From Eledone cirrhosa (lineage: Eukaryota), in contig OZ024743.1 of NCBI GenBank assembly GCA_964016885.1, positions 94,798,001 through 94,862,000 on the forward strand: a stretch of 64,000 nucleotides of DNA, in the 5' to 3' direction. Position numbers and translations under genes: made by a program. Of the stretch, positions 28,035 to 55,982 are shown piece by piece (the stretch's first letter is position 1; every line of letters begins with the position of its first letter). A model generated the notes under the pieces. That model made no database searches. It saw only the letters and a list, made by a program, of their open reading frames with translations, and was not told the DNA's origin.

Positions 28035-28575
28035 AACGGAAAAAATGAAACGATATTTCATTTCCCACTCTTAGTACGACTGTTACTTAAATATAAGTAT
28101 ATACACGTACATACATACATGTATACAGACGTACAGTAGTTTGTATATATATATATACATACATGCACACATATATATATGCACGTATGGATTCACCGAA
28201 CATTTATTACAATGCTCTGTGTGTTTGTAAACAAGCATCCCGTATTAAGCCGTAGTGTCTAGCAACCACCGTTGCTCGTTTGTTCAACACTGACAAAGGA
28301 ACGCTGTACTAGTTTCAAGCTTGTTAGCTATCGTCAGCAACGTATACCTTCCTGCCAGATTGTTGAACGTATATACTTACATTATGCATATTAACGGCTG
28401 AGTAGCCCAATTTGCATATCGAGTGGGTTAATCAGCCGGGTGCACCGAAAACGATAAACGGAAAAAATGAAACGATATTTCATTTCTCACTCTTAGTACG
28501 GCTGTTACTAAAATATAAGTATGTACACGTACATACATAAATGTATACAGACGTACAGTAGTATGTATACATACA
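28035..28575 (-). mobile_element. Retrozyme-like non-coding partial tandem repeat (422-bp period) flanked by (TA)n
   Basis: 28035-28140 repeats at 28457-28562. Contains an HHR (28301-28343) and an octamer (28410-28417). Same family as 54366-54990. Confidence 0.75.
28301..28343 (-). ncRNA. Minimal hammerhead ribozyme
   Basis: ACGUUG-CUGACGA-U-AGC(UAACAA)GCU-U-GAAA-CUAG-UA-CAGCGU, with a GUA cleavage triplet and palindromic stem III. Confidence 0.8.
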
Positions 28576-28606
28576 TATATATATATATATATATATATAT
28601 ATATAT

Positions 28607-28775
28607 ATAATTGTTTCTACTTTAGGCACAAGGCGAGCAAATACCCAGTACATTACTGGTACTTTATTTTTTCGACCCCGTAAGGATGAAAGGCAAACTT
28701 AACCTCGGTGGGATTTGAACTTAGACTGTAAAGGGACGTAACTATGCTAGAAAGCATGGCGTCCAACCCTCTATA
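28607..28775 (-). mobile_element. tRNA-derived SINE (5'-truncated)
   Basis: Family match. Confidence 0.8.
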
Positions 28776-29579
28776 ATGACGGATAGTCCTGGCTTCTTAC
28801 TCTATTTTTTAATTCATATGTATCACATCTGCAACAACGCATCACGCCATTTTCATCCCTATATGTTTTCCCTCCGCTGTGACCTGTCTCTTTCTCTTCC
28901 CTTACTGCTATCCTCTTTCTCTCTCCGCCTTCTCTCTCCTTCTACCTCTTACTTTCATTCACCCCCTCTGCTAGTCACCCTTTCTCGGCTAGCCTCTTCC
29001 TCACACTTCCACTCACTCACTCTCTGCTACTCACCCTCTCTCACTCCCACTCGTCTGACCTATGTGAAATTCTTTTCTCGCTCACATTTCGCATGGTTCG
29101 GATGCATCTTTCGGCTTTCTCGTCTATGATTCGCCAGATCTTATGTTCACTTGCATCACTGACTTGATTTTCCACCCTTTACGTTGCCTTACCATTCTTG
29201 GTTGTTTACATGTCTCTCTTTTTCCACCCAATTCTTTTTATCCCAATAACTTTATTTAGTTATTGCTCGCGCTGGCCTGAGGTATATGATCTTTAATGCG
29301 AAGAAATACCTATGATGGCCAGAAGATCACTGATGACGGATAGGCCTGGCTTCTTACTCTATTTTTTAATTCATATATATATATATATATTAGGTTATGC
29401 AAGATATGCTTAGGATTATCCTGAATGCAGTAATGGTTAATTACTGCACTAGATAGAATCGACGTACGGTGAGGGGTTATTCAACGAGTTATGAAAGAAC
29501 AGTTAAAGAAACTCGGTTTTCGATTCTTCCGATAAAGAATGATTAATAAAACAGGTAGACATCATAAAAAGGTAATTTA

Positions 29580-30975
29580 TTCCGAGTACTTACAAATGTT
29601 TCTTTAGTAGTTACACAGCCTAGTGATGCTGTGTGCAAATTGTAGTTATTTATTTGCAGGTACCCAATTTTCAAATGCTGTTCATCCTACCAAGTCTCAG
29701 AGCAAATGGCTAAATTGTAAATTCCCTGGTATTTCCTAAAGGGAGTTATTGGGGAAGATAGAGTAGAAAAGGAAGAGAGAAAGAAGGAGAGAGAGAGAGA
29801 GAGAGAGAGAGAGAGAGAGAGAGAGAGAGAGAGAGAGAGAGAGAGAGAGAGAGATGTAGCGGTCGGGGAAATGGGAGAGAGTGGTTTGAAGAATACAGAT
29901 AGCTTAATCTAAATGTGATAGGGGTCCAACAAATGGTTTTATTATACTGCTTACTCTCAAAGTGACAACTTAGGCATTGTGTTGATATTGTCAAGTTTAG
30001 AATTATTTATTGCCACAGAGAGAAGGTTAGTAGATGTAGAGTAGGGGGGATATAGACAGAGGGCGAGAGAGAGAGAGAGAAAGGGAGGAGAGAAAGAGAA
30101 AGAGAGAGGGGGGACAGAAAAAAGCTAAGAGAAGGGGAAGGAAAGGCGATATACACCGAGTTGGTAGTTGCATTTTGCTGATCGCACTTAAGTATCCATT
30201 TATTACGATAAGCAAGCTACTGGCTTAGAGTGTGTGTGTGTGGGGTGGGGGGTTGGGGTGGGGTATAGTTGGGAAGTATTATTGAGTGAAATTAGTTAGC
30301 GAGAAAGTGGTGTAGTAGTCTCGGGTTCATATGTTAAGTTATTTTATAGTGAGAAAATTTAGCCTTCAGTTTGTGGTTGCAGTATAACGATCGTTCGATT
30401 CTGTCATTTAGTAAGTTGTTTTTAGATTTCAAGATATAAAAGAGTTCAAGGTTGCATAATCTGCAGTACTTTAATCCACTCCGATATGCACTAGCATTGG
30501 ATAATTTATCCCATTTTAAGGTGAACTGCCGGAGGTATTCACGGAGTTGTCAGGTCTTATTAACGAGTGTAGTTACATAACGGTGTTCAGGATGTTTAAT
30601 CGAAAATCAATGACGATACCAGCGTGATTTAAAGGAGATACTGGTAGACCCGATTAATACCATTTCTGGTCGTTTGATTCGACAGTGCGTTGGACTCTAG
30701 GCATTTATTCTTCAATGGGCATCTCTCGGGTAGGTGGCAATTGCAGTTTTTGTTATGGGTAACAGCTGTACCATGGATAGGTTGGGATAACAGTTCAGGT
30801 GGGTTGTGTAATACCCGTCTCCCATTTGGTGGAAGGGAGGTTGATATTACGTTATGCCCATCTGTTTCTAAAATATTTTGTTTTGTAGTTTTGTTTAATA
30901 ATCGCTTTAAGTTAAGTTTTTTTTTTATGTATGCTTCTAGGTTTGGTGCAGTGGAGTGTGATAGCTTAACAATCT
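29580..30975 (-). mobile_element. Decayed PLE 3' part (GIY-YIG + 3' UTR + degenerate HHR at ~29581-29668)
   Basis: Minus-strand NCNCHLPERCPLKNKCLESN and IGSTSISFKSRWYRH match the endonuclease of the 61-63 kb element. Confidence 0.7.
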
Positions 30976-30979
30976 TAGA

Positions 30980-53790: not shown

Positions 53791-54153
53791 AAAAACCGAT
53801 TAAATTTAACAAATGACTAAAACTACTGAAATAAAATATTTTACTCGTGTATAATTTGAGAATAAACAATATACTTGGCATGATGTAGGTTTAAAAATAA
53901 AAATTCGGCACTACTACCACGAGTTTATTAACTCTTCAAGAAAATAAGTTCAGAATGTCTAAACAAATTCCAGACAGTACCATTTTTAGAAATTTTTAGA
54001 AATTCTTTGAATGGTTTTGGGGCTGCCCTTTCTAGCAGCTCGTCTCTCAGATACCACTGGTTCACTGTCCTACGCACGCTGTCACATCTCTCTGCCACGT
54101 GTTGCTGGACAGTTGTCTTAGATTTTCTTAGAGTTGTTTGGAATCTATCGTCT

Positions 54154-54238
54154 TACATGCGCTGATGACCCATAGACGATTCCATTTCAGTCAACAACTT
54201 CCTGGCGAAACAGATCTATTTGGATTTGTACGCGTGTG
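54154..54238 (+). ncRNA. Type I hammerhead ribozyme with full-length stem III
   Basis: UACAUGCG-CUGAUGA-[CCA...UGG]-C-GAAA-CAGAUCU(AUUU)GGAUUUG-UA-CGCGUGUG. Stems I and III are 8 bp each, GUA site. Confidence 0.78.
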
Positions 54239-54365
54239 TTATATAGTTATAGAGGTGCGTATATGGTTCTCCCTGTTTTATTGATGGCACACGATCTCTC
54301 TCTCTAGTGTGTTATCCTTTCCAGATATTGTATGTATATATATATATATATATATATATATATAT

Positions 54366-55250
54366 ATAAGTTGAAAAAAATGAAAACGAAATTTCATTTC
54401 TCACTCTTAGTATGGCACTTACTTAAATGTAAGTATGTATGTATACGTACATACATATATGTATACAGACGTACAGTAGCATGCATATATATATATATAT
54501 ATATATATATATATATATATATATATATACATACATATACACATATGCATACAGGTACACATACATATATGCACGCATCAGTTTAGCCGACGTTTATTAT
54601 AACGCCTGCTTTGTTCGTTTGTTTGTCAACAAATCGAACAGCCTGAATTTATGCCATACGGTGTTAAGGCAACCACGTCACCTTTTTGTTCAACACTGAC
54701 ACAGGAACGATGTACTAGTTGCAAGCTTGTTAGCTATCGTCAGCACCGTTTACCCATCTGCCAGATAGTTGAACATTCGAAAGTATATACTTTCCTTATG
54801 AAAATTAACGGCTGAGCAGCCTAATTTGCATATTGAGTGAGTTAAATCGGTCAGGCATACCGAAAACGATAAGTTGAAAAAAATGAAAACGAAATTTCAT
54901 TTCTCACTCTTAGTATGGCACTTACTTAAATGTAAGTATGTATGTATACGTACATACATATATGTATACAGACGTACAGTAGCATGCATATATATATATA
55001 TATATATATATATATATATATATATATATATATATATATATATATACATACATAACGTCGGCTAAACTGATGCGTGCATATATGTATGTGTACCTGTATG
55101 CATATGTGTATATGTATGTATATATATATATATATATATATATATATATATATATATATATATATATATATATATATATATATATATATGCATGCTACTG
55201 TACGTCTGTATACATATATGTATGTACGTATACATACATACTTACATATA
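54366..55250 (-). mobile_element. Retrozyme-like partial tandem repeat (503-bp period) with inverted partial copy (~55053-55250); HHR at 54706-54750 has GAAA changed to GCAA
   Basis: 54366-54490 repeats at 54869-54990. Homologous to 28035-28575. Octamer at 54824-54831. Confidence 0.75.
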
Positions 55251-55297
55251 TATATATATATATAATTAAGTTAAAAATGTACATCCACATATGTATA

Positions 55298-55982
55298 CTG
55301 TGTGTTTACATACAGAATAGCTGGACACTCACAGTAAAGTGACCAGTGAAAAACTCGGTACATCTACAATGTATACGTGTGTGTATTCATATGCATACTA
55401 GTATTTCAGTATACATATGTGGATGTACATTTTTAACTTAATTGTTTAAGCGTCAGTCATACAAAAGTGAGTTACAAACGAAACGAAATTTAATTTCGTT
55501 TCGTTATTTGTTTTTATCGTCTCCGTTGAACCGGTACGTACTCATGCTCTATGCAAATTAGTCTGCCCACTACTAATTTTCATAGAAAAAGCATATAACG
55601 ATATGTGCTTTTACGATTCTCTAGAGAGGCCGGAAGATAGGTAAATATTGCTGATGAGATGTAACAACATCGAAACTAGTTCAATATTCCTTGTCTGGCT
55701 TTCTGGAGAATAGAGGAAAGGTGTTTCCTCAAAAACCAGTATGACTCTAAAAACCGGTTTGTCTGTGTGTTTACATACAGAATAGCTGGACACTCACAGT
55801 AAAGTGACCAGTGAAAAACTCGGTACATCTACATATGTATACGTGTGTGTATTCATATGCATACTAGTATTTCAGTATACATATGTGGATGTACGTTTTT
55901 AACTTAATTGTTTAAGCGTCAGTCATACAAAAGTGAGTTACAAACGAAACGAAATTTAATTTCGTTTCGTTATTTGTTTTTA
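55298..55982 (+). mobile_element. Retrozyme-like partial tandem repeat (465-bp period)
   Basis: 55298-55515 repeats at 55763-55982. Contains an octamer (55551-55558) and an HHR (55644-55688). Confidence 0.78.
55644..55688 (+). ncRNA. Minimal hammerhead ribozyme (best-formed copy in the window)
   Basis: AAUAUUG-CUGAUGA-GAUGU(AACA)ACAUC-GAAA-CUAG-UU-CAAUAUU: perfect stems I and II, canonical core, palindromic stem III. Confidence 0.88.

Follow-up and report, generated by a model that had tools for sequence, protein, structure and literature searches.

A stretch of 64,000 nucleotides from the cephalopod Eledone cirrhosa (contig OZ024743.1, positions 94,798,001 to 94,862,000; hereafter the window) contains four non-coding repeat units, each carrying a predicted hammerhead ribozyme. 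These units belong to a superfamily of tens of thousands of non-coding hammerhead repeats. On balance, we consider it probable that they are copied by Penelope enzymes and that each carries a compact set of host small nuclear RNA (snRNA) promoter words driving its transcription, likely by RNA polymerase II (Pol II) in the young families.

The first-pass annotation of the window had described tandem units near 28, 54 and 55 kb, with a further unit near 16 kb, as a non-coding, retrozyme-like family having a minimal hammerhead in each unit. This description holds. The periods of the first three are 422, 503 and 465/466 bp, as claimed, and the units contain no open reading frame of 120 amino acids. 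All four carry a minimal hammerhead of the form CUGANGA...G(A/C)AA with a short palindromic stem III. The octamer ATGCAAAT lies upstream of the CUGA core at exactly the distances proposed, 84, 73, 81 and 93 nt in the 16k, 28k, 54k and 55k units, counted from the octamer's end. CTCAGCCG is present in the 28k and 54k copies, where TATATA comes next (at 28375 and 54789). Other parts of the description stand only partly. Counted from the core, stem I pairs over 6 bases in the 28k unit and over 7 in each of the 54k and 55k units, but pair 2 is mismatched in the 16k unit, and the core of the 54k copy reads GCAA instead of GAAA. The 54k copy is likely dead because of this core, and the 16k copy because of its stem I mismatch. 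The 54k and 55k insertions are longer than noted, since they extend through inverted 5' pieces (Table 1). A tyrosinase exon closes with a GTAAGT donor near 17780, which makes it plausible that the 16k unit is intronic, as stated. With the Rfam models, only the 55k motif scored (Hammerhead_HH9, 36.5 bits, under the 52-bit cut-off). Octamers at 21354, 21454, 22393 and 58660 of the window have no hammerhead behind them.

Table 1. Hammerhead repeat units of the window and their parts (window positions; cut sites are predicted).
Feature	Position	Strand	Remarks
Family A insertion (28k)	28035..28575	-	422-bp unit present 1.3 times, in the permuted order X-promoter-ribozyme-X'; lies in (TA)n
Family A extended octamer TATGCAAATTGG	28407..28418	-	compare TATG[CG][AT]AAT[TG]AG of host Pol III genes
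Family A YCAG core (TCAGCCGTT)	28393..28401	-	distance to TATA 26 nt; host Pol II snRNA matrix gives 7.7 bits
Family A TATA box	28368..28376	-	43 nt from first T of extended octamer
Family A minimal type I hammerhead	28298..28352	-	palindromic stem III ACUAGU; predicted cut after 28307
Family A 3' end, tail site 1	28035..28047	-	T6 run, then CCGTT, fused to (TA)n
Family B insertion (54k)	54366..55053	-	period 503 bp; 72% similar to family A; site 1 is the 3' end, on (TA)n
Family B cassette	54782..54832	-	TATGCAAATTAG 54821-54832; TCAGCCGTT 54807-54815; TATA 54782-54790
Family B hammerhead	54706..54751	-	GCAA replaces GAAA; likely inactive
Inverted 5' piece of family B insertion	55054..55247	+	ends at tail site 2 on (TA)n
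Inverted 5' piece of family C insertion	55264..55300	-	ends at tail site 2 on (TA)n
Family C insertion (55k)	55298..55982	+	period 465/466 bp; site 1 is the 3' end, on (TA)n
Family C cassette	55550..55600	+	TATGCAAATTAG 55550-55561; CCAC instead of YCAG (poor, -5.7 bits); CATATAAC 55592-55600
Family C hammerhead	55643..55688	+	predicted cut after 55681
Old family D copy (16k)	16247..16634	-	decayed second partial unit, period about 289
Family D cassette	16552..16634	-	host distal snRNA word TTATCTCCCTT 16624-16634; TATGCAAATGAG 16591-16602; YCAG and TATA decayed
Family D hammerhead	16471..16518	-	stem III is the palindrome AUAGCUAU; pair 2 of stem I mismatched
Octamers ATGCAAAT	16594-16601, 28410-28417, 54824-54831, 55551-55558	-, -, -, +	16k, 28k, 54k and 55k units
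CUGA cores	16510, 28337, 54743, 55651		same order as octamers

Searched across the genome, the pattern ATGCAAAT N65-95 CTGANGA N8-30 GAAAC gave 33,532 matches, against 7 for the reversed pattern used as control, and its SAG variants gave 2,497 against none. The association of octamer and hammerhead is not due to chance. About 33,500 units of about 460 bp would amount to roughly 0.5% of the 3.0-Gb genome. A three-word pattern (octamer, YCAG, TATA) had 20,462 matches, mostly family A/B copies, against 1 for its control. Family A had 1523 candidates in a first look at the genome, the best 40 of which are 97-100% identical. An unbiased sample was made of 40 stretches of 10 kb plus the window (464 kb); it contained 23 motifs fitting a hammerhead descriptor, against none in three shuffles. 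The octamer accompanies six of the 23, one further motif is a family A copy that lacks it, and most of the remaining ones belong to different Penelope-type repeats. Conversely, 4 of the 12 extended octamers in the 400-kb part of the sample have a hammerhead core behind them.

Clustering of 126 octamer-plus-hammerhead copies, from fetched loci most of which had been picked by such patterns, resulted in about ten families (A/B, C, D, E, F, G, H, I and J) with octamer-to-core distances of 81-109 nt. The octamer and TATA are kept across these families. Families A and B align at 72%, A/B and C in patches only, while D, E and H show no alignment beyond low-complexity words. Stem I covaries, with 3-6 pair types at each of six positions in 12 representatives. 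Additional octamers are also seen: family E (L137:1400-1520, L179) has two or three tandem octamer-like repeats ahead of the main one, and a family G copy (L231) has a second, inverted-repeat octamer upstream.

The first-pass annotation had read the upstream words as a compact H1/U6-like promoter. Host snRNA promoters were compared with the units, using distinct representatives of gene arrays rather than every fetched copy. In all seven RNA polymerase III (Pol III) loci (three U6, U6atac, MRP and two tRNA-Sec), the extended octamer TATG[CG][AT]AAT[TG]AG stands at -77 to -80 and a TATA box near -31, 47-49 nt after the octamer; U6, U6atac and MRP end at T5-9. Twelve further U6 matches, with decayed 5' ends, showed no octamer within 100 nt. 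In the 17 loci of the Pol II type (U1, U2, U4, U5, U12 and RNase P), the octamer is absent from all and YCAG present in all, at -55 to -58 in 16 and at -66, from the Rfam start, in RNase P. YCAG precedes a TATA-like box by 25-28 nt in 14 of the 16 scored, and AATTAA(A/T)T stands near -90. The host octamer adjoins the Pol III core promoter only and is no distal enhancer. A distal word, TTAYYTCCCTT, is found near -260 in 12 of 23 host genes (6 exact matches in 400 kb of random DNA).

Some side observations concern these host genes. The Pol III type-3 promoters (L031, L032, L033, L153, L158, L315, L316) mostly have CCT near -62, and U6 has the distal TTAYYTCCCTT near -265. The sole RNase P RNA gene found (L159, G000:C24:12936134-12936474) has U1/U2-type upstream AAATCAGT and distal TACCTCCCTT, and its upstream region lacks the Pol III-type octamer. 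This suggests that RNase P RNA may be transcribed as an independent Pol II snRNA-type gene. A literature search on cephalopod U6 promoters found nothing relevant.

The cassette of the units matches snRNA promoter words of the host itself. The units have the Pol III-type words, TATG[CG][AT]AAT[TG]AG plus TATA. The comparison with U6 thus stands for the octamer, but not for the geometry of the young families, which looks Pol II-like. The octamer-to-TATA spacing is 42-46 in families A, B, C, E, F, G and J, versus 47-49 in host Pol III genes; the host spacing is found only in H and I. These two families were uncovered by searching with that spacing. Both are old, family H (L243-L270) and family I (L253, L262), and between them they keep 48-49; in H the value is 48 in 13 of 15 copies, 5 of these 15 decayed copies retaining a hammerhead core. 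The young cassette matches neither host class as a whole, because its spacing is short for Pol III and the octamer is absent from every host Pol II-type gene. In addition, the host Pol II-type AATTAA(A/T)T near -90 occurs without octamer, so that the units differ in having one; their AATTA words are out of register.

CTCAGCCG, which had been called PSE-like (proximal sequence element), differs from the host U6 sequence at that place, but matches the YCAG core of U1, U2, U4, U5 and U12 at the same distance from TATA. An earlier view of it as a mere hairpin arm was revised after this comparison. In families A, B, E and F (L175), YCAG lies 24-27 nt before TATA and is part of the best two-block site among 400 positions. 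The scores on the Pol II core matrix are 7.7, 5.3, 5.9 and 3.6 bits, respectively, host genes scoring 3.5-16.5 when left out one at a time. In family A, the YCAG core, best of 400 positions on the matrix, is also the loop and 3' arm of a predicted hairpin formed with the octamer. Family D holds three separate host snRNA promoter words in host order: YCAR is at the place of YCAG in 15 of 22 copies, and the distal TTAYYTCCCTT stands about 32 nt before the octamer, within one mismatch in 12 of 22. A TCAG at +22 in H and I was considered as a Pol II core tracking TATA, but is weak, with negative scores.

The ends of the insertions bear on how the units are copied. Every insertion lies within (TA)n and has its unit in permuted order (X, cassette, ribozyme, X'); two fixed sites, separated by 55-75 nt, mark the ends. 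Ends were scored at 46 distinct loci, of which 15 have both end types and 31 have one; in all 15 two-ended loci, site 1 is on one strand and site 2 on an inverted 5' piece on the other strand, as in the 54k and 55k copies. At site 1, the non-continuing ends enter (TA)n in 21 of 26 cases for A/B and 15 of 18 for C. Loose ends occur at the same places in sequencing run X1, which may come from the same sample. The units are also found in contigs of four sequencing runs of unrecorded kind, which shows presence only. Frangieh et al. (2024, PMC11167929) showed for a Penelope protein that reverse transcription begins at two positions inside the RNA, which delimit the genomic tail, and inverted copies and a (TA)n bias are described for Penelope-like elements (Craig et al. 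2021, PMC8557442). The two-site tail, the inverted 5' piece and the (TA)n target support the earlier proposal of copying by Penelope-type machinery, and the units are likely copied by Penelope-type retrotransposon enzymes.

Taken together, the units likely switch themselves on, because host snRNA gene words stand just ahead of the predicted ribozyme. A unit of a tandem array would start its RNA 7-27 nt before its ribozyme core, the predicted starts being near 28344 (A), 54758 (B) and 55624 (C) of the window. The promoter would then lie outside its own transcript, and be inherited only if the RNA continues into the following unit and is cut from ribozyme to ribozyme, an argument also made for the schistosome repeat (PMC6765202). 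Cuts are predicted after GUA in A and B and after GUU in C. The palindromic minimal hammerheads would cut as dimers, producing a monomer of 420-500 nt, perhaps circularised, whose 3' part would carry the promoter of the next unit. In this way the promoter may be passed on though it is upstream of its own start. Reverse transcription by a Penelope protein would begin inside the RNA, at two sites separated by 55-75 nt, and yield a permuted copy with an inverted 5' piece. Lone copies of 1.3 units, such as those of the window, would be dead ends.

Several points weigh against this proposal. Transcription, start site and cleavage are only predicted in these units, and cleavage was found in only one of nine Xenopus retrozyme dimers in the available text of Li et al. 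(2026, bioRxiv 10.64898/2026.07.22.740005). In the young families, octamer and TATA stand about 5 nt closer together than they do in the Pol III genes of the host. For A, B and E, the core block by itself reaches only about the 95th-99th percentile of background. Family C, young and abundant, has no YCAG core (-5.7 bits), and the representatives of D, G, H, I and J score poorly on the Pol II core matrix. Within young families, the octamer is no better kept than its surroundings (A, 16/780 versus 341/20,483; C, 10/623 versus 288/18,345), as expected of neutrally decaying insertions. Agreement between families on the cassette is not independent, because they share ancestry. The octamer, YCAG and TATA all lie within predicted RNA hairpins. 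No partner Penelope sharing its terminal repeat was found in the 20 coding 3' flanks sampled. Finally, a search for RNA-editing scars of an RNA stage showed no excess of sense-strand A-to-G sites (15 versus 13, 5 versus 10 and 18 versus 13 sites for A, B and C) in 69, 30 and 56 distinct copies, among which top-identity matches are over-represented and overlapping loci were collapsed only if identical.

One observation may be mentioned beside this count. In a single, low-depth contig of sequencing run X6 (record 13), again of unrecorded kind, window positions 55343-55442 are covered with 12 differences over 101 nt; almost all of them are T>C, which resembles A-to-I hyper-editing of antisense RNA.

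The choice of polymerase calls for separate consideration. A first alternative, which we regard as unlikely, is that the cassette of every family acts as a Pol III type-3 (U6-like) promoter and that RNA of unit length arises by leaky termination at T-runs. The presence of the octamer beside the core promoter in 7/7 host Pol III loci and 0/17 Pol II-type loci argues for it, as do the spacing of 48-49 in H and I and, from the available text of PMC6765202, the Pol III-driven hammerhead repeat of schistosomes. However, the shortfall of about 5 nt affects A, B, C, E, F and G, whereas insect Pol III promoters keep their spacing within 1-2 bp (PMC1761439, in the part available). Moreover, T5-7 runs lie between the ribozyme and the next promoter in the A, B and C monomers, and in family H a run of T6-7 follows only 13-14 nt behind the cut. 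Our best guess for the young families is Pol II, because the T5-7 runs would stop Pol III before the next promoter and because their geometry is Pol II-like. It should be noted that in Drosophila the PSE sequence rather than the spacing sets the polymerase (PMC1761439, same part), so that geometry alone cannot decide the polymerase. A role of the T-run as Pol III terminator that sets the 3' end of the element was rejected, because A/B ends lie several bases beyond the run, which itself forms the 3' arm of a hairpin. As to how both geometries arose, one may tentatively imagine, though we find it rather doubtful, that the superfamily captured a host U6-type promoter, heritable because placed just before the ribozyme in a permuted unit; H and I would have kept the Pol III spacing, while the young families would have lost 5 nt and gained a Pol II core, thus switching polymerase.

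A second alternative is that the cassette is not a working promoter but is kept for the structure it forms in the RNA, or because the copying protein binds it, RNA being produced by read-through of host genes or neighbouring elements. The A, B and C monomers (422, 484 and 466 nt, GC content 0.36-0.38) are predicted to be 66-69% paired, with stem III a palindrome of 6-8 nt. In their predicted circles, the octamer and TATA form hairpins, with folding z scores of -8.6 to -12.7 that are inflated by AT palindromes. Family A would also use bases between TATA and the predicted start in an extended stem I. Nevertheless, the octamer is fixed while its pairing partner varies between families and is absent in E; family D holds its three promoter words in host order, and the spacing of family H is exactly that of the host. 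We consider this alternative quite improbable.

Finally, the units might be solo or tandem terminal repeats of an undiscovered ordinary coding Penelope whose promoter would be the cassette, given that the minimal palindromic hammerhead, the tail and the target are all Penelope traits, that in Xenopus 24 of 57 retrozyme families match known transposons at their termini, 21 of them Penelope-like (Li et al. 2026, bioRxiv 10.64898/2026.07.22.740005, available text), and that the comparison covers only the sampled part of the genome; but this is highly unlikely, since a same-strand Penelope protein match within 1.5 kb upstream was found for 0/113 A/B/C hammerheads (tandem neighbours filling part of these flanks) against 5/6 of a coding Poseidon-like family, and since neither an octamer before the hammerhead nor unit likeness occurs in any of 20 coding Penelope 3' flanks, a small sample from about 1.3 Mb of fetched DNA. 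The units are thus not the solo terminal repeat of any coding Penelope seen.

Penelope-like elements of the window itself, whose clade labels were assigned by eye, deserve a brief description. A tandem Poseidon-like Penelope (7700-13450, minus strand) has a 938-aa frame and a hammerhead (11302-11274) without octamer. Neptune-like elements lie at 44250-48490 and 59286-64000. The former, near 48 kb, has TTATCTCCCTT, GCGCATGCGC and TATAAA ahead of its hammerhead (48357); the latter has a 1.7-kb perfect inverted copy, and its assignment to Naiad was ruled out by the C-terminal position of its GIY-YIG-like motif. Pfam matched none of five Penelope-like frames. A Penelope-type hammerhead at 57373-57540 (57499, plus strand) has an opposite-strand extended octamer about 118 nt upstream, an arrangement seen in 1 of 20 motifs of a mixed cluster of Penelope-type hammerheads. 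More inverted Penelope-type ends are found at 30980-31719, 42449-42633 and 43553-43600, with hammerheads (31129/31570 and 43553) that lack the cassette.

The Sm-alpha hammerhead repeat of schistosomes, which is SINE-like, has an internal, tRNA-type promoter. Like the units, it would hold its promoter at the 3' end of the cut monomer, so that only tandems propagate; it is Pol III-driven (Ferbeyre 1998, as reviewed in PMC6765202), whereas the units have snRNA-type upstream words. Newt satellite 2 (Coats, Zhang and Epstein 1994, as cited in PMC2220036 and PMC6765202) is likewise a hammerhead tandem repeat with a short stem III, active as a dimer; Pol II reportedly transcribes it, using an snRNA-type promoter inside the repeat. 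There the case was made by experiment, while the units are known from sequence alone and comprise about ten families, with a Pol III-placed octamer and both Pol III-like and Pol II-like spacing.

Metazoan retrozymes without long terminal repeats (PMC7229834; bioRxiv 10.64898/2026.07.22.740005; both in the text available) also consist of tandem non-coding units with one type I hammerhead each, a GC content under 45% and a highly self-paired predicted circle, and Penelope dependence has been proposed for them. The units differ in their length (420-500 nt versus 170-400), in a minimal Penelope-type hammerhead instead of the canonical type I (PMC7229834), in direct Penelope end signatures and in the internal snRNA-type cassette. 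They count as retrozymes in a wide sense, because their hammerhead is minimal and their monomers are longer than in the definition of PMC7229834. In the text available, Li et al. and Cervera and de la Pena (PMC7229834) are silent on retrozyme promoters, the 'promoter' of the latter being only that of T7. With Penelope-like elements (PMC8557442 and PMC11167929, parts available), the units share partial tandems, an inverted 5' copy, a two-site tail, (TA)n targets and a minimal hammerhead; they have no reading frame and a tail of 55-75 nt versus 30-40, and the terminal repeats of the coding elements sampled here showed no similarity to the units and lack the cassette.

Hammerhead tandem repeats, their proposed Penelope dependence and one case of an snRNA promoter, newt satellite 2, are therefore already known. 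What is new is the scale, the direct Penelope end marks, the fit to host promoter classes and the existence of families with Pol III-like and Pol II-like geometry. In the open-access literature, no paper was found that deals with hammerhead repeats of cephalopods, and for snRNA promoters of retrozymes there were only citations of the newt study; subscription papers or Repbase may describe these families.

As to the surroundings of the units, a tyrosinase-domain gene (PF00264; 17769-22560, minus strand) belongs to a cluster of tandem duplications of about 33.3 kb, of which positions 134-6250 and 33441-39670 of the window are copies. The 16k and 28k units recur in neighbouring duplicates of this cluster on the same contig.

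The host Pol III and Pol II snRNA promoter motifs are now defined, which is of use for expressing guide RNAs in cephalopods; the Pol III type-3 promoter offers a ready design. For the transcription and copying of animal retrozymes, the cited work proposes, in the text available, the help of Penelope and names no promoter. The families offer testable answers on both sides: fixed reverse-transcription starts mark the Penelope route, and the cassette predicts the start site within a few bases. If the more doubtful reading of a captured U6-type promoter and a switch of polymerase is true, the units would be hybrid snRNA promoters, tens of thousands of them in a natural series that tests what sets polymerase choice, and would provide a cephalopod with abundant self-made circular RNAs.

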